DNA of 44,464 bases from an uncultured virus (IMG/VR IMGVR_UViG_2061766007_004279) (IMGVR_UViG_2061766007_004279); one strand, 5' to 3'; numbered from the stretch's first letter, positions 2,652 through 29,730 are shown. The notes: generated by a model from the letters alone, not told the origin. A program made the numbers and translations.

Positions 2652-2663
2652 GACCTCGATATG

Positions 2664-2713: not shown

Positions 2714-2735
2714 TTTCAGAGGAAGGAGAAATGAG

Positions 2736-8382: not shown

Positions 8383-8885
8383 TGGCTTTGGACAAACTCG
8401 TTGACTCAACTCAGCTTGACAGCGATCTGACTTCCGTTGCCGACGCAATCCGCACAAAGGGCGACACAAGCTCTGTGCTGGCGTTTCCCGCCGGGTTCGT
8501 GAGCGCCATTGGCAATCTGCCAAGCGCAAGACTGATAAAGTATAAATCCGTAACATTTACAACGACCGCAACAAGCGACGCGCGTCAGACCGTCTCTCTT
8601 GAACCCGGAATGACAAATTACTATATCACGGTCATAATCGACACTCGCCCAAGCGCACCGGACTCTTCCGAATATATAGCCTTGCAGTGGCATCTTTTGA
8701 ACCTCACCGGTTACGGCCTACAGCAAACGGGAATGATTTTGAGGCCAAACGGAACAATCGGAACAGATGGTGCTGCGTGCGGATTTACTGCTTCTACCGG
8801 CGTGCTTTCAATGGGGGGACCGTATGGTCATTTTATGGCGGGAACCACCTATCACATTTATCAATTTGAAATTGGAGCGAACTGA
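8382..8885 (+). CDS. Tail-fibre-associated protein
   Basis: The N-terminus LDSDLTSVADAIRTKGDTSSVLAFPAGFVSAI is typical of Clostridia phage fibre proteins. Coupled to the upstream gene by a TGATG overlap. Confidence 0.6.
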   Translation: MALDKLVDSTQLDSDLTSVADAIRTKGDTSSVLAFPAGFVSAIGNLPSARLIKYKSVTFTTTATSDARQTVSLEPGMTNYYITVIIDTRPSAPDSSEYIALQWHLLNLTGYGLQQTGMILRPNGTIGTDGAACGFTASTGVLSMGGPYGHFMAGTTYHIYQFEIGAN

Positions 8886-9358
8886 TGAAAAAGCTGCTGG
8901 TCGTTTTAATGACCATCGCCATGTTCGCCGTTCCGCGGCCCGTGACAATTCCTGACGGGGCATACGGAGTGTTTCAAGTTTCGTCCATCGGCACATCTAC
9001 CCCGGTCTATTTTTCCGACACACTTACCGGGCAGGAAGTGGTTGACGAGGAAAACTCCGCGCTGATCCGGGAACGCGGCAAGGGGTATTTCATCGGTGAC
9101 CATTACGGAAGTGAGGTGGACGGCGGGGAATGGAACGTCAACGAAATGCACGTGGGCGAACCCGCGTTCCTCATCACCGAGGAGACAACCTATTGTTATG
9201 AGTGCATTGCCGTGTGCCTCTGCTATGACAACGGGTACGACTATCTGTTCGGCGGCTACCGCGTCAGACCGGATACGAACGACATCATTGCGTGCGGGTG
9301 CGCCTGGGGCGACTATGTGTATCTGGCTTACTACGATTATTCCGGCGAAATACCATAA
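8885..9358 (+). CDS. Exported protein with sortase-like fold
   Basis: Signal peptide MKKLLVVLMTIAMFA, then GVFQVSSIGTSTPVY, QEVVD, FIGDH and IIACGC. Confidence 0.5.
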   Translation: MKKLLVVLMTIAMFAVPRPVTIPDGAYGVFQVSSIGTSTPVYFSDTLTGQEVVDEENSALIRERGKGYFIGDHYGSEVDGGEWNVNEMHVGEPAFLITEETTYCYECIAVCLCYDNGYDYLFGGYRVRPDTNDIIACGCAWGDYVYLAYYDYSGEIP

Positions 9359-11090: not shown

Positions 11091-11175
11091 CCCCCCTCAG
11101 CCGCTTCGCGGCAGNNNNNNNNNNNNNNNNNNNNNNNNNNNNNNNNCAGTCTGCGGACTGGTTCGGAATGACAGA
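11091..11175 (+). repeat. Family-1b and family-2 repeats upstream of portal B, interrupted by a gap
   Basis: CCCCCCTCAGCCGCTTCGCGGCAG, then CAGTCTGCGGACTGGTTCGGAATGACAGA. Confidence 0.65.
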
Positions 11176-11186
11176 CGGGAGGACGT

Positions 11187-13076
11187 ATGAGAAGAACGAA
11201 ACGAAAGAACACCGAGCCGGTGGTGACGGGGTACGACTACTCTGACCGGGAGGCGCGGGAGGTCACGGTGCAGGAGCTGTTCCACCGGGCCAAGAACGCC
11301 CGGACGGTGCAGGAGAGCGAGTGGCAGCGGTTCAACGACTACTACAACGGGATCCACGACGTCACCCGGGAGACCATGGACTACTGCCGGGAAAACGACC
11401 TGCCCTGGGTGCCGGCAAACATGCCGGACCCCTGGATCATGGTGGAAAGCCAGATCGATCCCAACGTGCCGGAGCCGGAGTTCCACGGCCGGGACTCCGA
11501 CATGGACAGCGCCAAGGCCAGGCAGCGGGAGTTCGCGGTGAAGTACATCATCGAGAACAACCGCCTGGCGGACATGAACACCCGGAACGAGCGGCGGCTG
11601 CTGAAGCTGGGGGACGCCTTCTGGAAGGCCTACTGGGATCCCGCCATGCGCTGCGGCGTGAACGAGGGGGACATCCGGGTGAAGGATATCCCCGTGGACG
11701 CGATCTTCCCGGATCCCTCCGTCCGGGACGGCACCATCCAGGACGGACAGTATCTGGATTTCGTGTACCGGCTGCATAAGGTGCGCTTCTGCCAGATGTT
11801 CCGGAAGGAGCTGGACGAGCTGGGGATCACCCAGGAGGACATCCTCTCCCAGGACTACGTGGAGCGGACCGGGATCTTCGACATGACCACCGCCATCGAC
11901 GACCTGGACGATACGGTGCAGGTGCTGGAGCACTGGTTCCGGCAGCCGGAGGAGACCAAGGGGAAGAACGGCGAGACCGTCCCGGCCGGGGCGGTGGGCT
12001 GCTCCATCCAGGCGGGCGGGCGTGAGCTGCGGTACATACCCAACTACTGGGAGCGGACCTGCAAGCAGAACCAGCTCTTCCCCTTCGTACATTACTGGCG
12101 GATCCAGGACGAGAACCAGATCTGGAACAAGAGCGAGCTGTTCCCCATCCTGGATCTGGTGGACGCGGCGGACCGGAAGCTCAGCATGGGGATCCTCAAC
12201 GACGCCTTCATGGCCAACGACATCCTGCTGGTGGAGGAAAACGCCCTGGCCGACGGCACCGAGCTCACCAACGAGCCGGGGGCCGTGGTGAAGCTGAAGG
12301 CCAACGCCATGGGGAAGGTCCAGCGGCTGGGCGGGCTCCAGAGTCTGGCCAACGCCAGCGTGGGGATCGAGTGGTTCAAGGGCCAGATCGAGCGGGCCAA
12401 CCGGCAGTACGACACCAGCATGGGCAAGGAGGCGGCCCGGGTGACCACCGCCACGGGCATGGCCATGCTGCGCTCCGACGCCCAGGGACAGGCGGACATC
12501 AAGCGGGCGGACCGGAACAGCGGGTTCGAGCGGCTGTACGAGCTGCTGGACTGGCTGGCCCTGGAGTTTTTCGACGACGATCGGATGCTGTTCCTGGGGG
12601 CGGACAAGGAGAAGGACCGGGAGGCCGAGCGGATGCGCTTCAACAGCGACGACCTCTCGGAGATCATGCCGGAGATCCGGGACCTGAACGGGGACGTGGT
12701 GCGGGAGAGCTGGACCTACTGGCCCCGGGTGGACGTGACGATCACGGCCGGGGACGGGGTGATCCGGAGCAAGCAGGCCACCCTGCAGGCGCTGCAGACC
12801 CTCACCCAGGCCCAGATCACGGCAGATAACTGGAAGCTGTTCGCCGCCCAGCTGGATATCCTGGACATCCCCGGGAAGCAGGATATCGTGAGAGAGTGGG
12901 AGAGCAAATTCGCCGCGCCGCAGATGCCGGGGATGGATGCCATGGGAGCCATGGGAACGGCCACCTCATCCGCCCCTGTCGGGGCACCTTCCCCTCGAGG
13001 GGAAGGCATGAGCGGGGGCGGGAATATGCCCGGGGCGGTGAGCCTGCCGCTGATGGGAGGGGAGCCCATTGTCTAA
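11187..13076 (+). CDS. Portal protein (P22-like), copy B, intact
   Basis: 629-aa ORF with GGGAGG RBS. Portal-like motifs (WQRFNDYYNG, GDAFWKAYWD, FPFV, EPGAVV, ATGMAMLRSDA). The C-terminus includes a family-1 repeat. Confidence 0.85.
   Translation: MRRTKRKNTEPVVTGYDYSDREAREVTVQELFHRAKNARTVQESEWQRFNDYYNGIHDVTRETMDYCRENDLPWVPANMPDPWIMVESQIDPNVPEPEFHGRDSDMDSAKARQREFAVKYIIENNRLADMNTRNERRLLKLGDAFWKAYWDPAMRCGVNEGDIRVKDIPVDAIFPDPSVRDGTIQDGQYLDFVYRLHKVRFCQMFRKELDELGITQEDILSQDYVERTGIFDMTTAIDDLDDTVQVLEHWFRQPEETKGKNGETVPAGAVGCSIQAGGRELRYIPNYWERTCKQNQLFPFVHYWRIQDENQIWNKSELFPILDLVDAADRKLSMGILNDAFMANDILLVEENALADGTELTNEPGAVVKLKANAMGKVQRLGGLQSLANASVGIEWFKGQIERANRQYDTSMGKEAARVTTATGMAMLRSDAQGQADIKRADRNSGFERLYELLDWLALEFFDDDRMLFLGADKEKDREAERMRFNSDDLSEIMPEIRDLNGDVVRESWTYWPRVDVTITAGDGVIRSKQATLQALQTLTQAQITADNWKLFAAQLDILDIPGKQDIVREWESKFAAPQMPGMDAMGAMGTATSSAPVGAPSPRGEGMSGGGNMPGAVSLPLMGGEPIV
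12962..13007 (+). repeat. Family-1 repeat, in frame in portal B
   Basis: Encodes TSSAPVGAPSPRGEG. Confidence 0.9.
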
Positions 13077-14953
13077 GAAATCGGGCGTGAGCATCCGGAG
13101 CACCATCTACGCCACGTTCCGGGGGGCGGACTTTTCCACGGATCCCTCCCTGGTGGAGAAATACCGGTCCCCGCTGTGCACCAACATCGTGGCGGACGCC
13201 GGGGGCATGCCCCAGAAGCGGGACGGCTGGCGGGTGCTGCATACCCTCACCGGGAAGGTGAACGGCCTCCACGCCGGGGTGTTCAGCGGCAACGCTAAGA
13301 AGCTGGCCCACGTGGACACCAAGCTGTACGTCTGGGACGACGAGAGCGCGCCCACACAGCTGCTCACCGGCCTGCCGGACAAGAAGAGCCGGAGCGTGTA
13401 CCTGAACGGGAAGCTGTGGATCGTCACCGGCGGCGGGTTCTACGTGTACGACGGGAGCACGGCCAGCAAGGTCTCAGCGGCCTCCGATGTGTACATCCCC
13501 ACCACCACCATCACCCGCATGCCCACCGGCGGCGGCGTCTCCTACGAGGACGTGAACATGCTCACGCCCTACCGGAAGAACGCCTTCCAGACCGACGGCA
13601 CCTCCAAGACCTTCACCCTGGACGGGGATATCGACGACACCGGGACGGTGACCTGCTGGGTATGGGGCGTGGAGACCGTGCCGGACAGCATCGACCGACA
13701 GAACGGGACCGTGACCTTCACCACTGCGCCGGCGGCGCCGGACGCGGGGCAGGAGGACGGGCTGGTGGTGCAGTTCCCCCATACGGTGACGGGCTACACC
13801 GACCGGATCGACAAGTGCTCCGTGATCACCACCTACGGATTCGGTACCAACGACCGGGTGGTGCTCTCCGGCAATCCGGATCTTCCCAATCAGGACTGGA
13901 TCAGCGGACTGAACGACCCCACGTATATCCCGGACCTGAGCTATACCGCCGTGGGCAGCGAGAGCACCGCCATCCAGGGCTACTGCCGGCTGGGGAGCTA
14001 CCAGGGGATCGTGAAGAGTGACGACGGGAAGGACAGCACCATCTTCCTCCGGCGGGCGGAGATGGACGACGGGGAGGCGGTGTTCCCCCTGCAGCAGGCC
14101 ATCGCCGGCGTGGGGGCCGTGAGCCCCGGGAGCTTTGCCTCCCTGCTGGACGACCCGCTGTTCCTCTCCCGGAACGGGGTGTACGCCATCGCGTCGAACA
14201 GCATCACCAGCGAGAAGATCTGCCAGGGGCGGAGCTTCTATGTGAACGCCCAGCTGACCAAAGAGACGGGGCTCAGCGACGCGGAGGCGGTGATCTGGAA
14301 CGGGATGTACCTCCTGGCCCTGCCCAACGGCCACGTGTACGCCATGGACGGCCGGCAGAGCAAGAGCTACAAGAGTGCCAGCCTGGGGGACTTCGTGTAC
14401 GAGTGCTACTACTGGGAGAACGTGCCCGCCCGGGTGTGGATGTGCTGGAAGAGCGGCACCGAGGAGAGCCTGTACTTCGGCACCGAGGACGGGAGGATCT
14501 GCAAGGTGAACTCCGATATCGCCGCCATGTACCGGTACAGCGACGGGGGCACCCGGGTGACGGGGACCCAGGAGATCACCGGCGGGGCGGCAATCGACGC
14601 GGTGTGGAGCACCAAGTACGACGACGACGGCACACCGGCGATCCTGAAGACCATGCTGAAGCGGGGCTGCTGCGTGACCATCAAGCCCTACGCCCGGAGC
14701 AGCGGGACGGTGTACTTCCGGAGCGACCGGACCGCCGGGACGGAGCGGCAGGGGGNNNNNNNNNNNNNNNNNNNNNNNNNNNNNNNNNNNNNNNNNNNNN
14801 NNNNNNNNNNNNNNNNNNNNNNNNNNNNNNNNNNNNNNNNNNNNNNNNNNNNNNNNNNNNNNNNNNATCGCCCGGAACAGCGAGGTGAACGAGGGGTTCG
14901 GGATCTTCCAGATCACCAAGCACTATGTGACGGGGAACTATGCCAAGAGATGA
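13069..14953 (+). CDS. Packaged-DNA stabilization/nozzle-like protein, copy B
   Basis: TTG start overlapping the portal stop. Homolog of 2736-4452. After the gap the true frame ends KHYVTGNYAKR* at 14953. Confidence 0.7.
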
Positions 14954-14998
14954 CACCTCATCCGGCGCTGCGCGCCACCTTCCCCTCAAGGGGAAGGC
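14953..14998 (+). repeat. Family-1 repeat immediately after a stop codon
   Basis: ACACCTCATCC-ggcgc-tgc-gcgcc-ACCTTCCCCTCAAGGGGAAGGC. Confidence 0.9.
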
Positions 14999-16061: not shown

Positions 16062-19000
16062 ATGGGTATCTACGCAAAAACGGCTGACAAGCTGAAAAAG
16101 AAACTGACCGAAGAAATGAGCACTTCCAGCACCGGGCGAGGGGCTGGAAGTGCTGCGGCATCCGGACGGCAGGACACCAGGAGCAGCTTTCTGGCAAGGC
16201 TGCAGAACGAGACAAAGGATTTGTACAGCCAGCAGAGCGGGCCGTCGAGGACGCCGGCCCCTACAGCGCCGAATCTGTATGCGGCGGCGGCGCAGAGGAT
16301 GACGCCGGGGCTGACCGGAGCGCAGCGGCAGGCGATGGTGGAGCAGGGGAACCTGTACAGTCAGGCGGCGCAGCAGCAGGCGGCGAGGCCGACAGGGAAC
16401 ACGTGGGAAGACGCGAACGCGCTGGCGCGGGAGACGCAGCAGCAGAGCCGGCCCAGCTATTTCCAGCTGCTGGAGCGGAACATCAATGCGGCTGCGGCGG
16501 ATCCGTACGGCGGCGTGACACCCCAGATGGTCGCGGAGCTGCGGCAGGCGGNNNNNNNNNNNNNNNNNNNNNNNNNNCTTCCAGCAGCTGGAGCGGGAGA
16601 TCGCCGCACAGGGGAATCCCTATTCCCAGGCCGCCCAGGCCGCGCGGACGCCCACGCCGGGACTGACCGGAGCGCAGCGGCAGATGATCGCGGAGCGTGG
16701 CGAGGCCCTGTCGGAGGACGCGGATCTCCGGGAGGTGAAGGCACGGCTCCCGGGGCTGCAGTATACCTACGAGGCCGCAAAGAACAACTATCAGCAGCTC
16801 ATGGACCGGAATATCCGGCTGGCCAACGAGACCGGGGAAGTGCCTCCGGAGCAGGTGGCGGAGCTGTACCGGGCCGAGCAGGCCATGAAGCAGGCGCAGC
16901 AGCGGTACAACGACGCGCTGGCCCGGAACGAGGAGATGTCCTATTCCGAGAAGATGGGCGGGATCAAGACGGATCTCTCCGGGATCGCGCAGCTGCTGGA
17001 CGACAGAGCGCGGTTCGAGGCGGAGGCCGGGATGCAGAGAGCGTCCGGCATGAACGACCTGGCGGCGGACTTTGACCGGCAGAAGGAGGAGGCGGACGCC
17101 AGGATCGAGGCGGTGCGGGAGCAGCTGCGCCAGGAGGGATATTCCGACAAGGAGATCCAGGCGCTGTTCGAGTACCAGGTGAAACTTAAGAACGCCGCCG
17201 AGATGCAGGAGAGGACCGAGCGGTACCGGACCGAGGCCGCCGGGAACAGCGACTTTGAGAACTGGCTGCTGAACACATCCACGGGACTGGCCGGAGGCAT
17301 CGGATNNNNNNNNNNNNNNNNNNNNNNNNNNNNNNNNNNNNNAGATCATCGGCGCCGACCCAATCACCGGGCAGACAAGGGTGCTGGACTACAACACCGG
17401 TGCGCAGGCCCCCCATGCCATCAGCGAGGCCGTGATGCAGGGCGAGATGGACAAGCTGCTGAAGAAGTACGGCGTGGAGGATGAAAACGGCGAGATCACC
17501 GGCATGAGCCGGGAGGGGAGGATCCGGGCCGGGGCGTATCAGCTGAGCGTCAGCATGGGCCAAAGCGCGGCTGTGGCCGGGCTGACGGCCCTGGGAGCGC
17601 CCTGCGCCATGCTGCTGCTGAGCGGCAACGCGGCCACCCAGACGGTCCACCAGATGCACGAGGCGGGATATTCTGACGGCGACGCCCTGCTGATGGGCGC
17701 CATCTCCGGCGCGGCGGAGTACGTGACCGAGAAGATCGGCATGGACAAGCTGTTCCAGACCCGGGACATCTCCACGGCAAAGAACGTGGTGAAGACACTG
17801 CTGGGGAACATCGTCAACCAGTCCATGGCCGAGGGCGGGGAGGAAGTGCTCTCCACCGTCATCAACACGCTGGCGGATCTGCTGGTGAACAAGGACAAGA
17901 GCGAGCTGGCGCTGCGGTACCAGGAGCTGCTGGCCCAGGGCATGACCCCGGAGGAGGCCGAGCTGGCCGCCGCCCGGGAATGGATGCAGGGCGCGTGGCA
18001 GGACTTTTACATGGGCGCTATTTCCGGCGGACTGTTCGGCATGGGCGGGACCGCTTTCGTGAGCGGCAGGAACGCCATCACAGANNNNNNNNNNNNNNNN
18101 NNNNNNNNNNGAACGGTGCAGGATGTGCTTGACGCGGCCAAAAAGCTGGACGGGAAGATCTCCGACGCCGCGGCCATGCCCGAAATAAGCGACACACCCA
18201 GCGACCGGGAGCTGGGCGCCGCGCAGCGCGGGCTGGAGCGGGCGCAGGTGATGGAGAACATGCGCTCCGAGCTGGAATCCCGGGGCGAGGAAAACGTCTC
18301 TCCCGAGCTTCTGAGCGCCCTGTACAACAGTTCTCTGGAGCAGGAGCAGCGGCTCACCCGGGAGGAGCAGAAAGCCCTGCGGGGCAGCAAGACCGCCATG
18401 GAGCTGGCCGCGGAGTGGAGCGAACAGTGGGGCGACAACAGCGTGCCGGCGCCATTCGAGGGCATGGAGGACATCCTGCGGCGGCAGATGGAGCAAAAAG
18501 AAAACGCGCCCCAGGAGGGCGCGGAGACGCAGGAAAGAAGAACAGCTGCACAGGCCGCTTTTGACGCTGCTACTCCCGTTCAAAAGCACGTTGACAGCAT
18601 CGTGGGGCAGATCGCAGAACGCCTTGGTCTGTCGTATGAACCGGGAGTGCAGAAGTCTATCTCCAGCATTTTGAGCCGGATGCAGCGAAACGCCGACAGA
18701 GGGCGTGATAGCTCGCCGTATTCTCTGAAGGATCTGGCAAGAACCCATATCGAGATGCAGTCGTGGGATCAAATACCGGAAGTGTTGGCCTTGCTGGATG
18801 AAATGAAAATCCCCTATACCGTCGATGCAAAAAACATGGACGGATATAAGGGACTACATGTCACTTGGCAAGAAAACGGGGTCGGCATTGAATTGCAGCT
18901 CTCCACTCCGGAAGCATGGGCTGTCAAAATGCAGACAGAAGAAATCTATGCGAAATGGAGAGAAGAAACTGCAAAGCCCGGGTTTGTGGTAACAGAGGAA

Positions 19001-22000
19001 TACCTCAATGACATCCAGAGATGCCATGATCTATGGGATCAGTTGGATATGCCGGATTTTTCGATCTTTGATACTTCTTCCGGAGAAAGCCGTTTGGAAC
19101 CATCTTCCATAAGCGAAGCAAGGTTCACAGAGGAACGCAAAGGCCCCCAGGTTCCGCCGGAAAGCTCAAGCAGCTCTTTGCCGGACTCTACGGAAAAAAC
19201 CCTGCCTTCAGATGAACGGACAAACATAGATACTCCCCCTTCCGATAAAAGTATATCACAATCGGAGACAGGAGTCAACGAGAAGACCACAGAAAAGAGC
19301 GTACGCGAATCTGCTGCGGTAATAGTAGGCAGCGGGCCTTCTGTTACAGAAAGAAAAGGAAACAGCTTGGCCAAGATTCTGGCAGACAAAATCAGCGCCA
19401 TTCAGCATATGGATCCGGTAACATCATTGTCTGGGCATGAATTGAATGACAGAAGCAAAAAGCCGATGCAGCAGATCATGGAGTTCTTTGCTAAGATTGG
19501 AAACCGCGTCACGAGGGACAACTTTGGAGAGGTGATTCTGGGGCAGTACGGAGCCGATGCAGTTATTAACCACAAACCGCTAAACAGGGCCAAGATGGTA
19601 ACGCTGGAAGCCGTACCGAATGTCATCCGCCACGGGGAAATGATCGGGTATGATCCAGACTGGAAAGGAAGGGGATATGCTTCCTTCATATTTGCTGCAC
19701 CAGTGAAGATTGCCGGAGAAACTGTGTATGTTGCAGCGGTGGTTAATCAGGTGAATGGAAACCAGTTTTATCTGAATGAATGCGTTGACTCGAATGGGAA
19801 CTATGTGAGAATAACAGAAGACCCATCCGGCAACGCAAAAACCGGACTTACCGTTCAAGACGGAATTACCGGAGGGCCGAATGGATCTTCCAGTAATAGT
19901 ATAACCGATGCCGCCGAAAAAAGCAACCCCCAAAATGAAGGCCGGGCCAGCGCGGAGGTGGACACCGGCCGGGCGGAGGACCGCCGTTCTCTGGAGCAGG
20001 AGTACAAGGAGCGGACGGAGGCGTATCTGGCGGCCAGCAACCGGAACGACACGGAGTATGACTACGCCGGTGAGATGGCCCGGATCCAGGAGCTGGAGAA
20101 GAAGCTGGGGGAGATGAACACCTCATCCGCCGAACAGAGTTCGGCACCTTCCCCTCAAGGGGAAGGCGAGGCCCAAGGGGAAGGCAAGGCCATGGCGGAG
20201 CTCATGGAAGTGGGCGAGGCCACGGTGGAGAACGACAGCGGGAAATACACCCTGCAGGTGCGCCGGAAGGGCGAGGGGTACCAGGCACGGATCTCCCGTG
20301 ACGGGAGGCTGGACCGGGTACAGACCTTTGAAACGCCACAGGAGGCGGCGGAATACGCTCTCTCCTACGTGGACGGACAGACCCAGGCCCGGACGGACGC
20401 AGAGTTGGACAACGAGCGCAGTGAGCAGCGGGAGAGGCCCGGACCCCACTGGCCCACCGGGAGAGAGTTCAGCGAGGAGATCATCCGCCAGAAGGAGAAC
20501 AAGGCGGCGGAGGCCGCCACCCAGACGCTGCGGGAGCGGATCCGGCGGGCCGACGAGGAACTGCGCGCCCTTCGAAGACTGGACAAGACCACCGGACTGA
20601 CGGACCAGCAGAGAGCCCACATGAACGACGTCCAGGAGACGCTGGACATCATGAACGACGAGCTGACCAAGCGGAAGGGCCGGAGAAAGGCGAAGAAAGA
20701 AGCGGCCGGGAAGGTCACGGAGAACAAGCCCACACGGAGCGCCGCCGAAGCGAAGAACGCCCTCATGGATCTGTTCCACACCGCCGCCGGCGAGCGTGCG
20801 GACGTGGGGCGGCAGATCGAGGCGAAGCTGGCCGAGATTGCCCGGACCGGGAAGATCACCGAGGAGAGCCGTCAGCAGCTGTATGACCTGCTGATCGAAG
20901 CGGGCGCCGTGCCCAAGCAGGCGGAGGACACCTTCCGGGAGATCCGGAACTGGCTCCGGGGACAGCGGATCTACGTGAACGAGCAGGAGCGCGCCGACCT
21001 GGGCGACGATTTTGAAGCTCTGCGCCGGCGGGCCTGGGGCGCCGGGATCTACCTGACCAACGACATCCGGGACGGCCGGATCGACGGCGTGAACGGCGAG
21101 CTGGCGGAGACCTTCGGGGAGAACATGTTCCCCACAGACGAGGCGCTGAGCGACATGCTCAACAACATGATCGACCTGGCGGACCGGGGAAAGACCACAC
21201 AGCAGACACTGCATGAGGCCATCCGGGGCGAGGCGAAGGAGACCGGTGTGAGCGCCAACGAGATCTACGCCGACATGTTCAGCCGGATGGACGAGACGCT
21301 ACGGACCTTTGCCGAGAAGGCGGGGCTGGAGGTGGACCTGAAAGACCGGACCGCCACCCAGCTGGCCGNNNNNNNNNNNNNNNNNNNNNNNNNNNNNNCG
21401 GGAGAGCGAGATCCGGGGCAAGGTGCTCCGGGGGCTGCAGCGGCTATCCAAGCTCCGGGGCAAGGCAGGGCCGGAGATCCGGACGCAGGTGGACGAGGTC
21501 CTGCAGGACATCGACACCCAGGCAAGGCAGATCACCCCGGCGGGACTGGAAAACCTGCAGGCGCTCCAGAGGGCCTACGAGGAAGCCAGGGAGAAGGCCG
21601 GATACGTGGACGGGGAGAACATGGGGAACTGGATCCCCAACCCATACGTGGAGGAGCGGCTGGCTGCGCTGGGCAAGAAGCACCTGAACGACATGTCCCT
21701 GGAGGACGTGATCGAGCTGGGGCGGACGGTCTCCGCGCTGGAGAACACCATCCGGACCCAGAACCAGATGATCGGGGAGGAGTTCGACGCCACCATCGAG
21801 AGCTACGCCAACGGCGTGCGCGGAGAGGTGGAGAACGCCAAGGGCGCGAAGGCGGGCTTCCTTCACAAGTGGCTGAAGGAGGAGCACCTGAGCCCCAGGC
21901 GGTTCCTGGACATGCTGGGCGGCTGGACGGACGGCTCCATGAAAAAGCTCTCCCAGAGCCTGGAGAGCGGTCAGACGCGGATGCTGGACTTCCAGCGCCG

Positions 22001-24923
22001 GGCCACCCAGAGCTTCGACAGCTTCCTCTCCAGGAAGGCAAACCGCCAGTGGCTGGNNNNNNNNNNNNNNNNNNNNNNNNNNNNNNNNNNNNNNACACCG
22101 TGCTTGACGGGGTGAACGAGGACGGGGCGAGCTATACCGACATCGAGCTCACGCCCATGATGAAGATCTCCCTCTTCCTGCACAGCCGGAACATGGACAA
22201 CCTGCGGCACATCCAGACCGGCGGCATCGTGATCCCCAACAAAGAACTTTATCTGCAGGGGAAGATGGCCGAGGCGTACGCCCAGGGGAAGCGGGTGAAG
22301 ATGAACCCGGAGACCGTGCGGAAGATCGCCGGGGAACTGACGGAGACGGAGAGGACCTTTGCCAACCACATGATCACCGTCTTCGACCAGATCTCCAAGG
22401 ACGCCATCAACGAGGTGAGCCTGCAGCTGGACGGCTTCGAGCGGGCCGGTGTGGAGAACTACATGCCCATCGAGACCGACCGGAACTTCCTCAAATCCGA
22501 CGTGGCAGGTGAGGCCAGGGCCCAGACCGTGGAGGGCATCGGGTCCATCGCCAACGAGCGGATCCACGCCTCCAACCCGGTCATGCTCTCCGACGCCAGC
22601 GACGTGCTGATGAGGCAGATCGACAAGGTGAGCCGGTATTACGGCTACGCCATCCCCATCCGGAACTTCCAGGCGGTGAACAACTACGTGTTCCACGAGG
22701 AAGGGGCGCCCTTCTCCACCTCCGTCAAGGAGATCATGAATAAAAAGTGGGGAGCGGGCGCCGAGCAGTACATCACCAAGATGCTGGAGGATCTGCAGAG
22801 CACCGGCCGGCGCGGGGACATGATGAGCTCCGCCCTGGCCAAGCTGCGGGGCAACCTGGCCGGCGCCACGCTGATGTTCAACCCGTCGGTGGCCGTCTCC
22901 CAGACCGCCTCCTATCCCGGCGCGGCACAGGCCGTGGGCTGGGACGGGCTGGCTCACGGCCTNNNNNNNNNNNNNNNNNNNNNNNNNNNNNNNNNNNNNN
23001 NNNNNNNNCAACCAGGGAAACAGCACCCAGGAACTGGGCGACTACATGAGCCAGAAGGGGCTGGCGCAGAAACTGCCGTGGATCCTCAACTGGATCCAGA
23101 AAATGGACAGCGCCACCATCCGCCGGCTGTGGGCCGCTTCGGAGTACCGGGTGAGCAAAGACAACCCGGGGCTGAAACCGGGCTCCCGGGCCGACATAGA
23201 CGCCGGGACGGACGCCTATTATCAGAAAGTGGCAGAGGTGTTCAACCGGGCGGTGTACGACACACAGCCCAACTACACCAATATGGAGCGGGCCCAGATC
23301 CTCCGGAGCAATTCGGACCTGACGAAGTTCCTGACCATGTACAAGACCGTGCCACTGCAGTATTACGGAATGATGGTGGAGGCCACCGGACGGCTGCAGG
23401 CCGCCGTGAAGAGCGGAGACCAGACCAAGATCGCGGAGGCCAGAAAGTACGCGGCCAATACCTTCGGCGGGCTGCTGGCGGCCAACACCGTGTACGTGGC
23501 GGTGAAGGCGCTGTTCAAGGGCCTGCGGAAGAAGGACAAGGACTACCGGGACGAGGAGGGCAACCTCACCGCCGGGAGCGTGGCGGCGCAACTGGGGAAG
23601 GATCTGGCGGAGACCTATGCCGGGTCCATCATCGGCGGCGCGGAGATGTACAGCGCGGCGGAGAGCCTGCTGACAGGGTCCAAGTTCTACGGGCCGGAGA
23701 TGTCTGCTCTCTCCTACGTGGAGGATATGGTGAACGCCGTCGGCAAGGTGACGGACGCCATCGGGGACGAGGATCCCAGAAAAGCGGCCGGGGCCATCAA
23801 GGACGCGGCGCTCTCTCTGGCCAAGGGCTTCGGCGTGCCGGCGGAGAACATGGAGACCTATCTCATGGCCGGGGTGCGCTGGCTGTTCCCAGACGTAGCC
23901 ATGGAGTACGACAACATGTTCGGCGGGATCCAGAGGGCCGACTTGAAGAGCATGGACACCCAGGCCGTGAGCACCGCCACGAACCTGATCCTGCAGAACC
24001 GGACGGGGTTGAAGATCGACCAGTCCGTGACCGACGAGCTGGCGCGGCTCTACTCCGCCGGGGAGCTGGCTGCCGTGCCGNNNNNNNNNNNNNNNNTACA
24101 ACGGGAAGACCGTGGAGATCGCCGACCGGGGCGCGTACAGCGACACCTGGGGCGCCGTGGTCGGGGACAACCTGGAGGAACTGGTGACGGCGGACGATTA
24201 CGTGAGCGCGGACGACGGGCAGCGGGCGGCGCTGGTGAACAAGCTGTACCAGTACGCCACCGTGGAGGCCAGGAGGGAAGCGGATCCGGAATACTCCGCC
24301 GACGGGAACAGCACCTACGGCTGGACCGTGAAGGCGGACGAGGCCGTNNNNNNNNNNNNNNNNNNNNNNNNNNNNNNNNNNNNGACGCTTTCGGCCACAT
24401 GACCGCCGACAAGGACGAGTTCGGCAACAGCATCAGCGGCTCCAAGAAAGCGAAGGTGTGCGACTACATCGACGCCATGGACATCACCGACGAGCAGAAG
24501 GATGTGATGTACTTCCTGGCGGGGTACAAGGAGAACAGCCTGGAGTATACACCCTGGCACGGGTACGAGGAGGACGGCGGATCCAGGAGCGGGTCCGGGT
24601 CATCCGGGAGCGGCAAGGGATCCGGGAAGAGCTCCGGGAAAAGCTCCGGCGGAAAGCGGTCCGGAGGCCGTGGCGGAAGCCGGAAGGCAGCGGCCAAGGA
24701 GAAGGCCGTGAAGGGATCCGGGAAGATCCAGCTGCCGAAGGTGAGCTCCGGGAGCGGAGGCGCCGGGAAGGTCCAGACGCCGAAGGGATCCGGGAAAGGC
24801 GCGGACGCCAGCCTGACGCTGATCGAGATCATCGACAAATACTACGGAGGGAACGCCCTGGCCGCCGCCATGGACGGCGGTGCGAGGGCCAGAGGCAGGA
24901 CCGAAGTGGACTTTGAGCTGTAA
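16062..24923 (+). CDS. Giant polyvalent/internal virion protein (~2,900 aa across gaps) with RelA/SpoT-like and LPD3-like domains
   Basis: Successive + frames (16062, 16684, 17381, 21423, 22095, 23046) are broken only at N gaps. Includes A/G-rich helices (GAISGAAEYVTEKI, EGGEEV), a low-GC insert at 18540-19940, and a G/S/K-rich C-terminus. Confidence 0.7.
20118..20167 (+). repeat. Family-1 repeat, in frame in the giant protein
   Basis: Encodes TSSAEQSSAPSPQGEG; followed by a partial duplicate (CAAGGGGAAGGC). Confidence 0.9.
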
Positions 24924-24933: not shown

Positions 24934-24968
24934 AAAGCTCCCGCAGTTGATCACTGCGGGAGCTTTTT
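24934..24968. terminator. Bidirectional intrinsic terminator
   Basis: AAAGCTCCCGCAGT-tgatc-ACTGCGGGAGCTTT with A- and T-tracts, between convergent genes. Confidence 0.85.
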
Positions 24969-26548
24969 CGTGATGGCGAACACGTTTCGGAGGAAGAAAA
25001 GCTCCGTGATGTTCGTACGCTCATCAAGTGGCACACCTTGAAGGGAAGCATACGAACCGGGGGAGTCGTCGGAGAAGGACGAGGAGCCGGTTTCGATGTC
25101 CTGCAAGGTGACGCGGCGGGTGTCGCCGCTGTAGTTGAACGTCATGGTGATCTTGTCGTCCCAGAGGTAGATGCTGTTCACGAACGTTTCCACCAGACGC
25201 CGGCGGGCGTCCGGATCCTCCGGGTCCAGATCCCGGAGCCGGAGGAGGAAATAGAGGATCATGTCCCGGGTGATGGGGACGTCGGAGCTCAGCCGGGCCG
25301 CGGCCAGGGTGTCCTTCAGCTCCAGACGCTGGGCCTCCAGGTCGTTCATCCGGTCCGTGAGGGTGGGGCTGAGCATGCCTGCCTCCACCGCCTGGACGAT
25401 GTTCCGGATCCCCTTCTCCACCTCCGAGAGCTGGCGGCGCAGGCCGTCCTCGTAGGAGGTGTCCTTCTGGCCCTCGTACAGGGCGAAGGCGTTGTCCGCA
25501 ATGCGATCCAGGAGCTCGTCGTCCAGCAGGATCCGGCGGATCTGGTCCATGACCTGCTGCTCGATCCACTCTTTCCGGACGGGCTTCTTTTTGCACTCCC
25601 GGCGGCGGTGGCCCATGCAGTCGTAATAGTGATATACAGTTCCCCGGCGGCTCNNNNNNNNNNNNNNNNNNNNNNNGACTCGCAGTGGCCGCAGAACAGT
25701 TTTCCGGTGAGCAGGTATTCCACCTTCGTCCACTCCTTTTTCGGCGCGCGGCGGTTGCGCACCAGCATTTCCTGAACGCTGTCAAAGACCGTACGCTCCA
25801 CGATCGCGGGGACGGTGCCCATGACCTCGCCCTTGATGGCGTACTCCCCGATGTACTTCCGGTTCTTCAGCATGGCCGTGACCTTGTTGATGGTGAACTC
25901 CGAGCCGTTGGAACAGCGGAGACCGGCGGCGTTCAGGGCTTCGACGATCTCCTTCATGGGCTTTCCGCCGGCGTACTCCCGGAAGATCCGCTGGACAACG
26001 GCGGCCTGGCCGGGGTCCGCTGCGATCTGCTTCTCCGCGTTGGTGACGTACCCGTAGGGGAGCGGGCCGATGAGCTTGCCCTTTTTCACGCTCTCCCGCA
26101 GGCCGCGGCGGACGTTGGTGGACAGCTGCAGCGAGTAATACTCCGCCATGGCCTCCAGGGTGGCCTCCAGGATCACGCCCTCGGGGGTGTCCGGGATCTG
26201 CTCGGCCACGTAGTGGATGGTGACGCCGTTCTTCCGGAGGGTGTGCTTGTTCACCGCCAGCTCGTAGCGGTCGCGCCCGATCCGGTCGTTCTTCCAGGTG
26301 ATCAGCTGCGTCCATTCGCCCTTCGCGCTGTCCCGGAGCATCTTCTGGAACTGCTCCCGGTCGTCGGAGCGGCCGGAGATCCGGCGGTCGATGTACTCCC
26401 GTAGGATGGTCATGCCGTGGTCCGCGGCGTACTTCCGGGCAGCGGAAAGCTGGCCCTCGATGCTCTGGTCGGTCTGGTGGGACCCGTCCGAGTACCGGGC
26501 ATAGACGGCGGCGTATACGGTATTCGGTTGGAGGTTGAGTTCGTTCAT
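24951..26548 (-). CDS. Large serine recombinase (integrase)
   Basis: AVYARYS..QTDQSIEGQL, DREQFQKML, DRIGR, PYGY, MLKNRKYIG, PAIV, YLLTGKLFCGHC zinc ribbon and a coiled coil. The frame breaks at gap 25654-25676. Confidence 0.93.
25011..25057. other. Candidate attP within the integrase 3' end
   Basis: GTTCGTA...TACGAAC inverted ends 47 bp apart around CAAGTGGCACACCTTG. Confidence 0.5.
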
Positions 26549-26602
26549 GGCGTAAGGGGCCCCGGGAGGGGTGGAGATGATGATTATTTTTTCAAGAGGT
26601 AG

Positions 26603-26650
26603 TTGACATGTCGTAAAGATAGGCGTATTGTGTAACTAACAGTTAGTTAC
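26603..26650 (+). promoter_or_regulatory. hicAB promoter and palindromic operator
   Basis: TTGACA (26603)-17 bp-TATTGT (26626), then a perfect palindrome GTAACTAAC-A-GTTAGTTAC (26632-26650). Confidence 0.85.
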
Positions 26651-26669
26651 GGGGCGGTGGTGTGCCAGA

Positions 26670-26936
26670 ATGGGAAAGAAAGAAGATAAGCAGATAGCCA
26701 GGATAAAGAGTATTCCTGCGGACTATACTTTTAGTGAATTGAAGTCGATCCTCGGAAGATTCGGATATGACCAAAAGAACAGGGGGAAAACGTCAGGGTC
26801 TGGGGTTGCTTTTTACAGGGAGTCAGACGGGAAGACAATCATGTTGCATTCACCGCATCCGAAAAACACAATAGGGCGTGCAACATTGAGAGAAATTGTT
26901 AAGAAACTGCAGGAGAACGGAGACATAGAGGAGTAA
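26670..26936 (+). CDS. hicA: HicA-family toxin
   Basis: 88 aa; PADYTFSELKSILGRFGY..GKTSGS..IMLHSPHP. Confidence 0.88.
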   Translation: MGKKEDKQIARIKSIPADYTFSELKSILGRFGYDQKNRGKTSGSGVAFYRESDGKTIMLHSPHPKNTIGRATLREIVKKLQENGDIEE

Positions 26937-26974
26937 AACAAATTCTACGTGTGAGTCAGAAAAGGTGAACGAAA

Positions 26975-27421
26975 ATGAACAACATCATCGAATACAAAGG
27001 GTATCATTCAAAAGTCGAATACAGCGCAGAGGATAATATCCTTTTTGGGAAAATTGAAGGGATAAATGATTTGATCACATTCGAGTGCGAAACTGCGGCG
27101 GAAGTCGAAACGGCTTTTCATGAAGCCGTTGACGATTATCTTGCCTTCTGCGAAGAGGTCGGAAAACAGCCGGACAAGGAATACAAGGGAGTATTCCAGG
27201 TCCGGGTGGATCCTGAGCTTCACAAGAGAGCAGCCATCGAAGCACTTAAGCGGGGGGAGACTCTAAATGCTTTTGTAGCAGAGGCGGTGCAGGATAAAGT
27301 AGAAGGGAAAGCCAAAAATGAGATCCATCTACATCTTCCGGAAACAAAGCGTGATGAATATATCCTCGGACGAACAATGAGTTGGAAAAATACTGGGAGG
27401 CTGCAGCATGCAAGAAGCTAA
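26975..27421 (+). CDS. hicB: HicB-family antitoxin with a C-terminal extension
   Basis: EYKGY..EYSAEDNILFGKIEGINDLITF..FHEAVDDYL..YKGVFQVRVDPELH (RHH domain), followed by about 38 extra residues. Confidence 0.92.
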   Translation: MNNIIEYKGYHSKVEYSAEDNILFGKIEGINDLITFECETAAEVETAFHEAVDDYLAFCEEVGKQPDKEYKGVFQVRVDPELHKRAAIEALKRGETLNAFVAEAVQDKVEGKAKNEIHLHLPETKRDEYILGRTMSWKNTGRLQHARS

Positions 27422-27763
27422 ACTGGTATCAAAGAATATCACGGATTTCTGGATGCGCATGAAGCCGGATTTGCAGCAGATTCCAATCAATGTGGAGTTG
27501 AGCGTAGGGTTTGGACTCCCCAAAGACGGATCAACTTCCGCAGGAATGATGAATGTGCGGATTGAGGTCAAGGCGGAAAAACCGGAAGACTACCATGTGC
27601 TTTTTATCGAGTTCCTGGAATACAGATTCATCGAATCTCAGGACGATATTCAGAAGGCGCTGGAAGAAACGTTCAATGAACTGTCGGTTCAGGAGGTATC
27701 TGATGACCTGGACAAGGCGATGGAGGCGATAGGAAANNNNNNNNNNNNNNNNNNNNNNNNNNN
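27408..27763 (+). CDS. Putative SecB-like chaperone (stop probably in gap 27737-27763)
   Basis: Overlaps the hicB stop; RBS GGGAGG. About 115 aa, acidic, with four beta-strand-like segments then helices ending AMEAIG. Confidence 0.55.
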
Positions 27764-27787
27764 GCCCCGGGGAGCCGGGGCTTTTTT
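27764..27787 (+). terminator. Intrinsic terminator of the hicA-hicB-orf3 operon
   Basis: GCCCCGG-ggag-CCGGGGC-TTTTTT. Confidence 0.8.
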
Positions 27788-27992
27788 ATTTGGGGAGAGA
27801 CGCGGGAGGGGAAAGCCCCTCCCGTTCATATTCACGGAAAGAGGATATGATGCGGACGGCTTCGTCCAGGTCGGCGGCGGTGGCGGCGTCGTTGACCGAA
27901 AAGAGCACCGGAGGNNNNNNNNNNTGAGGCCGCGCGCGTGACCACCGCCTCCGGCATCGCCATGCTGCGCTCCGACGCGCAGNNNNNNNNNN

Positions 27993-28687
27993 TCGGCATC
28001 GGAACGCTCCCGGTTGAGGGCGAAGAGGTAGACGGTGCCGAAGGGATCCGTGCAGACCTGCTTCACCAGGAAGCCGCCGTCGAGCCAGAAGGCGCCGATC
28101 TCCCCGTCCCGGGGGAGACGCTTGACGCCCAGGGCCACGCTGCCGTCCGGGAGCCAGGGCTCCATGGAGTCGCCGTTCACATGGATGGCAAACTCCGCCC
28201 GGAGATCCGTGGTGCGGTAGTCGCCGCAGAAGAGATCGCCGGGGGACTCGGGAGAGCCGGCAGCGAAGGCGGCACCGAAGAGGGGCACGATCTTCGCCGG
28301 CGCGCCGGGGCGGGGCTTCTCCTTGGCCTTGTACTGCTCCTGCTCGCCCAGGTACCGGCCGTAGGAGCAGAGCTCCGTCTGGCCGGCGTGGTTCAGGGCG
28401 TCATAGATCTGGTCGATCTCCCGGACCGGGAAGGGGATCACTTCCGCCGCCGGAGCGGGGGCGGATGCTTCCATCACATCTGTTTTTCCGATAAGCCAGA
28501 CAGGGCTGACAGACAGAACACGGGCAATACTTTCAATCACCGGGAGCTTGGGGTTTTCGTATTCGTCTTTTTCATACCGCTGGATGGTGGACTTGTGTAC
28601 GCCGACAGCCTGCGCGATGCTGTCCAGAGTCATACCGCGCAGGTGACGGGCGTATGCGATGCGTTCACCGAGAGTTTTCAAAGACAT
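27993..28687 (-). CDS. CI-like repressor, XRE HTH plus S24 peptidase (3' end in gap)
   Basis: LGERIAYARHLRGMTLDSIAQAVGVHKSTIQRYE; AAG cleavage-site motif; VNGDSMEP; FLVKQ. Confidence 0.9.
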
Positions 28688-28718
28688 GACATAAATCCCC
28701 TTTTATCAGAGTAAGTAT

Positions 28719-28832
28719 ACTATACTATAAAAATTTGCGAAGCGCAACTATTTTTCAGAAAAAAGTTGCGAAATGCTATTGACAAGGAAATGAGGCGGTG
28801 ATATAGTCAAGATGAAAGTTGCGTGAAGCAAC
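28719..28832. promoter_or_regulatory. Lysis/lysogeny switch: divergent promoters and operators
   Basis: Rightward TTGACA (28779)-17 bp-TATAGT (28802). Leftward TTGCGC-17 bp-TATAGT (28747 to 28719). GTTGCG-N4-GCAAC-like sites at 28734, 28765 and 28818. Confidence 0.8.
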
Positions 28833-28851
28833 AACCGAGGAGGTGAAAAAC

Positions 28852-29058
28852 GTGGTCAACACACAGAAGCTGATCGGGCGGATGAAGGAACTCGGCGTAT
28901 CACAAAAGGAATTAGCAGATATATGCGGCGTGAAGCGGCCCACCATCAACCAGAAACTGCATGGTGTTCGGTCGATCTCGCTGAATGAAGCGCAGATCAT
29001 TCAGAGGACATTACATATCCCGGAGAATGAGTTCGGCGCTTATTTTTTTGACGCGTAG
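28852..29058 (+). CDS. Cro-like HTH regulator
   Basis: GTG after GAGGAGG; LIGRMKELGVSQKELADICGVKRPTINQKLHG; divergent from cI. Confidence 0.88.
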   Translation: MVNTQKLIGRMKELGVSQKELADICGVKRPTINQKLHGVRSISLNEAQIIQRTLHIPENEFGAYFFDA

Positions 29059-29152
29059 TTGCGTAGAGCAACCGTTTCTCCCCTATAGTGGAGAAAGAAG
29101 ATTTTGTCCTTGACAAAATCAAAGGAGACTGCAGACGGAAGGAGGGGAGGAT

Positions 29153-29290
29153 ATGAAGGATCCGGCGAAGGATCCCGTGTTTCTGTGGTGGGTCGTGGAC
29201 CAGGTGAAGATCCTGGCGCGGGATCCGCAGTTCCAGAAGGATTTTCAGGAATGGCAGAGAAAGAGGGCTGAGGAGGCCGGGAGGGCGTGA
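29153..29290 (+). CDS. Small hypothetical protein (45 aa)
   Basis: Strong RBS GGGAGG; MKDPAKDPVFLWWVV..DPQFQKDFQEWQRKR. Confidence 0.55.
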   Translation: MKDPAKDPVFLWWVVDQVKILARDPQFQKDFQEWQRKRAEEAGRA

Positions 29291-29305
29291 GCACTCACCG
29301 GGAAA

Positions 29306-29344
29306 GATCCCTCACCAGTTTGAGAACTGGTTCGGGATGACAGA
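29306..29344 (+). repeat. Family-2 hairpin repeat
   Basis: GATCCCTC-accagtt-tgag-aactggt-TCGGGATGACAGA. Confidence 0.85.
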
Positions 29345-29361
29345 AGGAAGGAGGAAACGAA

Positions 29362-29730
29362 ATGACCGGAACATGCTTTTTGTGCGGCAATTACGAGACG
29401 GTGGAGGTCCACCACATCTTCGGCGGGCCGTTCCGGACGAAGGCGGACAAGCTGGGGCTGACGGTGCAGCTGTGCCCCTGGTGCCACCAGTACGACGCCG
29501 ACAGCGCCCACAAGAGCGCCGAGACCCGGAAGATCCTGCACAAGTACGGCCAGCGCAAGGCCATGAAGGAGCAGGGCTGGGACGCGGACACCTTCATCGC
29601 GGAGTTCGGGCGGAACTACCTGGACGAGGAGGAGCTGGACGAGAACGGGTTCCTGGCGGAGCCGGAGAGCGTGGGGGACAACAGCGGGGAGTTCCGGCTG
29701 GTCCAGGAACAGGCGGTGCTGCCGTGGTGA
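29362..29730 (+). CDS. Zn-binding HNH-like protein
   Basis: CFLCG..EVHHIFGG..LCPWCH..FGRNYL. Confidence 0.75.
   Translation: MTGTCFLCGNYETVEVHHIFGGPFRTKADKLGLTVQLCPWCHQYDADSAHKSAETRKILHKYGQRKAMKEQGWDADTFIAEFGRNYLDEEELDENGFLAEPESVGDNSGEFRLVQEQAVLPW

Follow-up and report, generated by a model that had tools for sequence, protein, structure and literature searches.

A low-GC, in-frame cassette with a RelA/SpoT-like synthetase module and an LPD3 domain inside a giant phage polyvalent protein

Here, we describe a low-GC cassette that lies in frame within a giant gene of the uncultured virus IMGVR_UViG_2061766007_004279 (IMG/VR), known from a 44,464-nt draft that we refer to in full as the window. 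The cassette joins two modules through a linker. Module 1 is a RelA/SpoT-homolog (RSH) synthetase fold with a complete active site, for which sequence motifs and a structural model predict catalysis, and module 2 is an LPD3 domain. The carrier is a phage polyvalent protein whose orthologs hold other modules at the same site, and the cassette is best explained as horizontally acquired and recently swapped in. We put the chances at somewhat better than even that the reading holds as a whole, i.e., that a horizontally acquired two-module insert in a polyvalent carrier supplies a nucleotide-acting pyrophosphokinase.

The composition of the cassette is foreign to its surroundings. In 300-nt windows, GC content is 0.46-0.51 across 18600-19949 as against 0.59-0.69 in the flanks. 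Across 18524-19948, GC content is 0.493, with values at the first, second and third codon positions (GC1, GC2 and GC3) of 0.539, 0.427 and 0.514, whereas the left flank (18113-18523) has a GC content of 0.667 with GC3 of 0.869 and GC2 of 0.423, and the right flank (19949-21367) a GC content of 0.658 with GC3 of 0.871 and GC2 of 0.433. GC2 is, therefore, the same inside the cassette and in its flanks, while the contrast in GC3 is strong. Among 1,396 windows of 1,425 nt across the whole sequence (mean GC 0.623, standard deviation 0.042), the cassette is ∼3 standard deviations low. An earlier note on this DNA had reported an in-frame segment of low GC, and this segment is confirmed by the GC sliding window, by GC3 and by the open frame; the peptides quoted for it are also in place (VQKSISS at 18647, DGYKGLH at 18839, GIELQLST at 18884, IYAKWRE at 18944, GNRVTRDNF at 19499 and QFYLNEC at 19763). 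On the minus strand, ORFs (open reading frames) of 95-247 aa in the cassette and left flank match no Pfam family.

The borders of the cassette are set by orthologs of the giant protein. A piece of 3,258 nt that is free of Ns (18111-21368; translated as P0002) is open over 1,085 codons and contains the cassette in its entirety. P0002 residues 1-137 are 94% identical to the ortholog P0153 and 88% identical to P0155, and residues 1-142 are 92% identical to P0154. Identity to the orthologs ends past residue ∼138 and is back at a GRASAEVD motif at residue ∼610. These break-points put the borders at ∼18528 and 19940, so that the right edge of the segment as first delimited (18540-19940) stands while its left edge was slightly off. 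The interval between these break-points is filled by unrelated residues, 775 in P0153 (with LPD23 and LPD3) and 635 in P0155 (without a Pfam family); the comparison of homologous giant proteins, which had been proposed as a check, thus does reveal alternative cassettes.

A chimera, with the low-GC segment misplaced into the ORF through faulty assembly or scaffolding of a poor draft, could be argued from the 55 runs of N in the window and from its mixture of parts of two related phages (two sets of portal and phrog_3287 genes, at 880-4403 and 11172-14754, encode proteins that are 76-84% identical). However, the segment and both junctions lie within the single N-free piece, both junctions are in frame, and contigs from other studies cover the same ground. 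Matches to the stretch come from metagenomes of the ruminant gut (20 rows in 15 studies, two of them possibly the source sample), and we compared the N-free piece with Logan contigs from four other studies (X3 to X6), which, being contigs and not reads, are uninformative on depth and absence. A 3,387-nt contig of X3 spans 18113-19999 and both junctions with 24 letter differences and one 15-nt frame-keeping deletion; a 1,772-nt contig of X4 spans 18111-19723 and crosses the left junction; and contigs of X6, from goat, cover 18553-19980 in pieces and cross the right junction by 41 nt. Because independent contigs bridge both junctions, we regard a chimera as hardly credible, and the cassette belongs to the giant-protein ORF as originally proposed. 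The contig of X5 covers the right flank from 19991, and its upstream letters are of the P0155 type. Because it joins P0155-type sequence to the same downstream flank, it represents an alternative allele of the variable region in another sample.

Exchange of modules is also evident in the wider carrier family. A word-indexed search with the N-terminal 234 residues of the giant protein gave 48 proteins of 1,778-3,884 aa. Among 15 of these scanned with Pfam, 12 carry LPD23, LPD3, LPD38, MuF_C, ART-PolyVal, PBECR3, PBECR5 and SHOCT in varying combinations, mostly at residues ∼950-2,650, and three have no Pfam family. The synthetase module is in none of the 48, as judged with a hidden Markov model (HMM) that recovers 150 of 150 positives. 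The exchangeability that the earlier note had postulated is, therefore, seen at the site itself, both in orthologs with other modules and in the X5 allele.

Several lines of evidence identify module 1 as an RSH synthetase. First, scanned alone, 18530-19120 (within which residues of this module are numbered) has a single Pfam match, RelA_SpoT (PF04607; E 8.3e-5, 23.3 bits, profile positions 3-94 of 113). A HMMER search over 1.84 billion cluster representatives gave 191 relatives at E<=1e-3 (84 at <=1e-10 and 15 at <=1e-30), each standing for a cluster at 50% identity; among the 150 listed, 61 reach a length of 1,000 aa or more. In Pfam scans of 32 shorter relatives, RelA_SpoT was matched at E<=1e-3 in seven, two of them over the cut-off. 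Second, in a 44-sequence alignment, K42, S46, R53, D68, R71, Y106, Q123 and R144 are invariant, and G105, G108, H110, E121, T126 and Y140 are conserved in at least 90%. The K/S/K/R helix, the Mg-binding Asp, the acceptor-loop Tyr and the Glu-x-Gln are all present. The residues of the catalytic core align with the motifs of Tas1 and YwaC, and the conserved residues map onto those of SaEAS/Apk1 (PMC12691689) and onto the roles described for FaRel2, namely R/K/S/K/R triphosphate contacts, a Mg-binding Asp, an acceptor-loop Tyr and a Glu (PMC11782079). Third, the family profile matches Tas1 (6ox6; E 1.2e-7), YwaC/SAS2 (6fgk; 1.6e-6), 2be3 (5.3e-6) and long Rel (∼0.009) among PDB sequences. Single-sequence phmmer against the PDB gave insignificant matches only, with ankyrin repeats at the top through a short D-G-Y-x-x-L-H stretch. 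Fourth, the AlphaFold2 model (predicted local distance difference test [pLDDT] 92.6, predicted template modeling score 0.86) has the central antiparallel sheet and flanking helices of the synthetase fold and matches solved RSH synthetases. Foldseek against the PDB gave 52 matches at E<=1e-3, the best 22 of which are all RSH enzymes, with Tas1 first (7.4e-7) and SaEAS second (template modeling score 0.70), and the top 31 rows from VIA are likewise all RSH enzymes. In the structure comparison, SaEAS scores 15.1 (root-mean-square deviation 3.3, 178 residues aligned), SAS1 13.7, Tas1 13.3, RelP/SAS2 ∼13, CapRel 12.2, long RSH enzymes 7.5-9.7, FaRel2 7.3-7.5 and other Pol-beta nucleotidyltransferases ∼6. 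Profile, model, structure search and alignment, thus, bear out the earlier suggestion of a RelA/SpoT synthetase.

We consider it very unlikely that the module is a passenger of a variable linker region, whether inactive, decaying or purely structural. Its absence from all 48 of the closest N-terminal homologs and its sub-threshold Pfam score would fit such a passenger, but every conserved donor-site and catalytic residue is retained, the frame is open across ∼470 foreign codons, the only indel reported in or beside the module in another sample is 15 nt long and keeps the frame, and the structure model is confident.

Sequence and model lean toward a nucleotide as the acceptor. This lean rests on Tas1 as the best sequence relative (it is the best PDB profile match) and SaEAS as the best structural relative, with Tas1 in the group tied behind it; on the D-x-x-R motif (D68/R71), which matches D121/R124 of SaEAS and the aligned motif of Tas1, unlike the D-x-x-G-x-R of YwaC, which is the usual form; and on the poor match to FaRel2. 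By contrast, CapRel is nearly as good a structural match. The product is, on this evidence, probably (p)ppApp and/or (p)ppGpp. Because the Apk1-like family includes (p)ppApp-only, (p)ppGpp-only and dual-product enzymes (PMC12691689), membership does not reveal the product. We think it unlikely that the module pyrophosphorylates tRNA, and no likelier that the synthetase is a translation-targeting toxSAS. FaRel2 does appear among the weak single-sequence PDB matches (E 1.4), and the model has a long N-terminal helix (residues 2-31) before the core, reminiscent of the N-terminal helices with which FaRel2 binds tRNA (PMC11782079). However, the family profile reached Tas1, YwaC and 2be3 without FaRel2 or CapRel at E<=0.01, the D-x-x-R motif is common to Tas1 and SaEAS, and the phage itself needs the host tRNAs.

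We suggest a model in which the insert was acquired horizontally and in frame into a hypervariable central "effector" region of the polyvalent protein. Module 1 would be a Tas1/Apk-SaEAS-like pyrophosphokinase that transfers pyrophosphate from ATP to the 3'-OH of a purine nucleotide, giving (p)ppApp and/or (p)ppGpp. ATP would be consumed in this way, and host purine metabolism and transcription would be shut down, while module 2 (LPD3) would be a generic polyvalent-protein module. From gene context and gene order, together with the described biology of polyvalent proteins (PMC5512222), we infer that the protein is packaged in the capsid and delivered with the DNA; the enzymatic activity and the acceptor choice are likewise predictions.

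Several points weigh against this model. The module is below the Pfam cut-off for RelA_SpoT (23.3 vs. 27 bits), and a Pfam scan of the whole 1,085-residue piece has no RelA_SpoT match. Of the two HMM searches that the earlier note had called for, the one for LPD3 succeeded and the one for RelA_SpoT fell short, though two relatives do pass (P0028, 42% identical to the query, with 33.9 bits, and P0090 with 29.1 bits); the missed cut-off is a database threshold and not a biological criterion. Only three of the five ATP-site residues of SaEAS/Apk1 (PMC12691689) are identical (R71, E121 and Q123), N370 of Apk1 is a His here, as in ordinary small alarmone synthetases, and K353 is without a conserved counterpart. 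Scans of 45 (PHROGs) and 38 (Pfam) ORF pieces of the window turned up no HD-domain alarmone hydrolase and no recognizable immunity gene, although Tis1-like proteins may be missing from the model libraries and the window has its 55 gaps. An ATP-draining enzyme delivered at entry would harm the phage too. Presence in virions is a prediction from gene context. Finally, the 48 closest N-terminal homologs all lack the synthetase, which is, therefore, no core function of the carrier family.

Instead of a takeover at entry, the cassette might mainly serve the lysogen, the choice between lysis and lysogeny or, as a toxin, conflict between bacteria or between phages. The phage is temperate by its gene content (serine integrase, S24 repressor and HicA toxin island), an alarmone pulse could bias the temperate decision or exclude superinfecting phages, and the cassette alleles co-occur in rumen samples, as conflict loci would. 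For MuF toxins such as Apk2, the role is stated to be unknown, with injection and inter-bacterial antagonism both considered (PMC10083569). However, the module is inside a gene of the late structural region and is without a separate start or an immunity gene; we regard this alternative as improbable.

The synthetase module is mostly found in carriers without LPD3. In Pfam scans of 23 synthetase carriers, PBECR3 was found in four, LPD3 in three (one under the cut-off), ART-PolyVal in three, LPD38 in two, MuF_C and ADPrib_exo_Tox in one each and sub-threshold RelA_SpoT in three, and 10 had no family. With LPD3 in three of 23 carriers and in either order, the effector pair that had been envisaged is not a fixed one. 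LPD3 precedes the synthetase in P0006, P0016 and P0076, follows it in P0020, P0089 and the protein described here, and is absent from most carriers; co-occurrence counts from our custom LPD3 HMM are lower bounds, as this HMM is narrower than that of Pfam and missed P0016, P0020, P0153 and others. A role of LPD3 as a cis-inhibitor of the synthetase was considered and dropped, as the two modules rarely co-occur.

A pattern scan for related loci, for which an 8-sequence alignment was used because the 44-sequence alignment was too diverse, shows that the compositional contrast extends beyond the window. The GC content of the synthetase module is 0.475 in locus L002 (0.548 upstream and 0.498 downstream), 0.482 in L003 (0.549 and 0.576) and 0.565 in L004 (0.669 and 0.648), i.e., lower by 0.07-0.10 than at least the upstream flank. 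Given the GC-poor module at these three loci, the compositional scar is recurrent for the synthetase module. By contrast, the module matches genome GC in L007 and L008, phages with a GC content of 0.45-0.46. These values fit an origin of the module in a lower-GC phage pool followed by slow amelioration. The IMG/VR locus L004 also has the same layout as the window, with a portal gene, one ORF and a giant ORF that combines a phrog_22978 N terminus with a synthetase module 64% identical to that described here.

The assignment of module 2 to LPD3, as claimed earlier, is upheld by Pfam, in which PF18798 has a cut-off of 27 bits and reaches 32.8 bits within the 1,085-residue piece and 36.7 bits when the module is scanned by itself. 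Its AlphaFold2 model (pLDDT 87.8) is an alpha+beta fold with a five-strand sheet. Homolog searches gave 12 and then 97 proteins (63-560 aa), most of them marked PF18798 and some also carrying PBECR5, ART-PolyVal or a metallopeptidase; in P0249 and P0284, LPD3 and PBECR5 are adjacent, separate domains. In an alignment of 45 sequences, G96, K106, R108 and Y110 are invariant and R56, H75, K82, W105 and E144 nearly so. The module, thus, shares with its 44 relatives the nearly invariant R, H, K, W-K-G-R-G-Y and E positions of Pfam LPD3. In Iyer et al. (PMC5512222), LPD3 is not among the LPDs considered potentially enzymatic. The likeness to BECR-type RNase toxins, which the earlier note had raised, is weak and at most faint: Foldseek with the model gave no match to solved structures at E<=1e-3, the LPD3 profile found among PDB sequences only a dihydroorotase (E 0.13), and hhalign gave probabilities of 4.9% for PBECR3, 0.3% for PBECR5 and 0.4% for an unrelated control, in a comparison of little power (PBECR3 vs. 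PBECR5, 0.1%). With E<=1 as the limit, NCBIfam had nothing for the 1,085-residue piece, the synthetase module or the LPD3 module.

The first ∼70 residues of the linker between the modules are still alignable in relatives of the synthetase module. Short Ser-Gly-x-Ser motifs are at P0002 residues 323-326 and 407-410 (∼19079 and ∼19331), i.e., at the end of the synthetase module and just ahead of the LPD3 module. Stand-alone fragments have similar motifs before LPD3, and P0154 has three; they may be module borders or processing sites. Downstream of the cassette, P0002 residues 681-753 (20153-20371) have a sub-threshold match (15.9-16.7 bits, cut-off 35.2) to RAMA, the Restriction Enzyme Adenine Methylase Associated domain. 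P0153 and P0155 have this small conserved domain as well, which places it in the backbone rather than in the insert.

The giant gene (16062-24923, plus strand) has ∼2,950 codons, and its sole interruptions are eight N runs that shift the apparent frame. It was assembled piecewise from GC3 (∼0.9 in true frames) and ortholog alignment. GC3 of the coding pieces is 0.79-0.94, and eight of the nine pieces (all but the short 24097-24345) were aligned with the metagenomic proteins P0153 (3,280 aa) and P0155 (3,136 aa) and are collinear with both from end to end. A 2,268-codon ORF at 17381-24187 in the plain ORF list was rejected as an artefact in which N runs are read through and several stretches are out of frame. 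The protein matches phrog_22978, a profile of 3,513 positions and unknown function, through its N- and C-terminal pieces. The conserved C-terminal piece matches only unnamed viral clusters in the ESM Atlas, the related-locus search with the N-terminal piece gave a single IMG/VR locus that ends at the match, and tblastn with the 1,085-residue piece gave no match in INPHARED phages. With ∼2,950 residues and with LPD3 and an RSH domain among shuffled modules, the protein has the very large size and several shuffled effector or LPD domains of polyvalent proteins. The module content and the neighbouring portal and structural genes agree with the earlier placement of the cassette in a giant phage protein. 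Upstream, the gene order is portal, phrog_3287 gene, one ORF and the giant gene; directly downstream, on the opposite strand, is the gene of a large serine recombinase.

The best explanation of the gene content and relatives is a temperate, podovirus-like rumen phage of Clostridia. Other genes in the window encode an SU10-type adaptor, tail and endolysin-like proteins, small and large terminase subunits, an S24 repressor, a replication initiator and a HicA toxin, and the two matches in genome collections are metagenome-assembled genomes from goat forestomach labelled Oscillospiraceae and Clostridia. The first of the two portal sets is followed by endolysin-like, adaptor and tail genes and the second by the giant gene. 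Material from two related phages is, therefore, combined in the window, whether through prophages in tandem or through scaffolding across related strains. The 58 nt at 27925-27982, enclosed by two N runs, match 2040-2096 within the first portal gene at 98% identity, which suggests a stray fragment. The cassette is one of four low-GC islands in the window. The other three are at 26351-27900, 28351-29400 and 8301-9200 (GC <0.52 in 600-nt windows); that at 26351-27900 begins at the 5' end of the serine integrase gene, includes an ORF for a HicA-family toxin (26640-26933) and probably represents a moron or accessory region.

A dispersed bipartite repeat of ∼44-57 nt reaches into the giant gene. 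Its box B has 12 plus-strand copies in the window vs. 0 expected by chance. Within the repeat, a 12-nt box is conserved, one hairpin is variable, with compensatory changes in three of five pairs, and another, of 8 bp, is invariant. Seven copies are in coding segments, usually in tails or inter-domain linkers; the hosts include the portal tail, the giant-protein linker, the terminase and an endolysin-like ORF between ELLD and LysM, and in five coding copies the second box encodes the same 8-residue peptide. The copy at 20118-20167 is in frame in the giant gene, 178 nt past the cassette, and coincides with a depth spike and with many contig ends from other samples. Contig 17 of X5 has 66 extra letters at 20114-20118 (the region 20073-20181 was compared in X3 to X6), and the repeat-encoded peptide is present in two tandem copies in P0155, in one copy in the window and in one diverged copy in P0153. 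These data point to variation of repeat copy number inside the giant gene. The repeat matches no Rfam family at gathering scores, and its exact pattern is in 119 IMG/VR stretches, often several per contig and on one strand. Palindromic elements that are tolerated in frame are known from Rickettsia. The repeat may be a mobile palindromic element tolerated in this way, or an RNA processing or terminator hairpin. A joint reading would link all three elements: a capsid-delivered, fast synthetase, an LPD3 that is a BECR-like RNase or helper, and a repeat, accommodated in frame by six or seven genes, that is a mobile element helping to shuffle the cassettes. In it, a few capsid copies would give a pulse of (p)ppApp/(p)ppGpp at entry that acts on the lysis-lysogeny decision or blocks competitors. 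We regard this combination, and the pulse it entails, as a long shot.

Table 1. Coordinates of the features discussed (nt; residue numbers in the catalytic core are within 18530-19120)
Feature	Coordinates	Strand	Basis or remark
Low-GC in-frame cassette, ∼470 codons	18528-19939	+	GC 0.49, GC3 0.51
RelA/SpoT-homolog (small alarmone synthetase-like) pyrophosphokinase domain (predicted)	18530-19069	+	
Catalytic core	18653-18898	+	K42, S46, R50, R53 (triphosphate helix); D68, R71 (D-x-x-R motif); Y106, H110 (acceptor loop); E121, Q123; each position invariant or conserved in at least 90% of the 44 aligned sequences
Ser/Pro/Glu/Thr-rich linker between modules	19070-19366	+	Low pLDDT at adjoining model ends; no Pfam match
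LPD3 domain	19367-19813	+	Pfam PF18798 match at 19472-19771
Conserved left flank	18113-18527	+	88-94% identity to P0153, P0154 and P0155 over 137-143 residues
Conserved right flank, from GRASAEVD motif	19940-21367	+	71% identity to P0153, 87.5% to P0155, ∼480-500 residues
Giant-gene coding pieces	16062-16550, 16579-17304, 17345-18082, 18113-21367, 21399-22055, 22097-22960, 23010-24080, 24097-24345, 24384-24920	+	GC3
Portal gene	11172-13073	+	P22_portal 36.8 bits; phrog_156 E 4e-21; upstream of giant gene
phrog_3287 virion structural gene	13054-14754	+	E 8.6e-38; upstream of giant gene
Large serine recombinase (integrase)	24954-26635	-	Resolvase and Recombinase Pfam domains; phrog_95 E 5e-77
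Repeat copies	2664-2713, 12961-13007, 14953-14998, 20118-20167, 31458-31504, 33273-33316, 34866-34922, 35716-35761, 38896-38941, 39633-39679, 40915-40964, 43832-43878	+	

The concept of RSH domains in polyvalent proteins alongside LPD3 is not new. Iyer et al. (2017, J Bacteriol, PMC5512222) defined polyvalent proteins, reported RelA/SpoT only in those of the phage type, described RelA-SpoT with LPD3 in prophages of non-pylori Helicobacter and noted MuF fusions; the RelA/SpoT domain was proposed to trigger an alarmone-like response and host shutdown. As in their cases, the phage protein described here is giant and multi-domain and includes an RSH domain within a set of shuffled effector modules. 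It differs in its setting, a high-GC phage of the rumen Clostridia type, whereas the acquisitions reported in that paper are in prophages of Spirochaetes and epsilon-Proteobacteria and in MuF fusions, and in that the swap is caught directly through the GC3 contrast and the allelic orthologs. What is added here are the exact break-points, a strong compositional scar and natural allelic alternatives in the same habitat, which together make a clean natural case of module swapping in a phage polyvalent protein. More broadly, a Tas1/SaEAS-like synthetase family that is mostly missed by Pfam is common in phage proteins of 1,000-5,000 residues (191 clusters).

MuF polymorphic toxins, as delineated by Jamet et al. 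in 2017, reportedly combine an N-terminal Phage_Mu_F head-morphogenesis domain with a C-terminal toxin. The protein described here is not of this type: none of the giant-gene pieces has a Phage_Mu_F match in Pfam, the toxin-like module sits inside the protein and not at its C terminus, and MuF_C is present only in some orthologs or relatives (P0156, P0165 and P0026). Apk2 (BcTas1), from a temperate phage of Bacteroides caccae, is a MuF-fused enzyme that makes (p)ppApp and is neutralized by Tis1-like and Aph1 proteins; its delivery with the DNA was proposed and stated to be untested (Ahmad et al. 2023, PMC10083569). Like Apk2, module 1 is a phage-encoded RSH domain of toxin type on a capsid-associated carrier, an association that gene context suggests for the carrier described here. 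Unlike it, Apk2 is a two-domain MuF fusion followed by Tis1-like and Aph1 genes, whereas the carrier here is a polyvalent protein of ∼2,950 residues. In the literature searched, coverage of which is incomplete, we found no experimental work on an RSH domain within a polyvalent protein. The authors of the Apk2 study (PMC10083569) themselves ask if alarmone synthetases carried in capsids are injected and which products they form, and the synthetase domain described here is a compact, well-modelled candidate for addressing both questions.

The toxSAS enzymes (FaRel2, CapRel and PhRel2) are stand-alone or antitoxin-fused defence toxins that act on tRNA (PMC11782079); no pseudo-Zn-finger antitoxin domain is seen here. 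Closer in motifs are Tas1/Apk1 (a type VI secretion system [T6SS] effector, 6ox6) and the exported SaEAS (8vx3), which has ∼600 exported relatives, including a MuF cluster (Ahmad et al. 2025, PMC12691689). Both share D-x-x-R, E-x-Q and K-W-R-like motifs with module 1, but identity to the module is only 15-21%, and the acceptor-loop residue that is His in the module is Asn in Apk1 and SaEAS. The systems also differ in the route by which the synthetase would reach its target: PAAR/T6SS or a Sec signal for Tas1 and SaEAS, and a phage polyvalent protein for the module described here.

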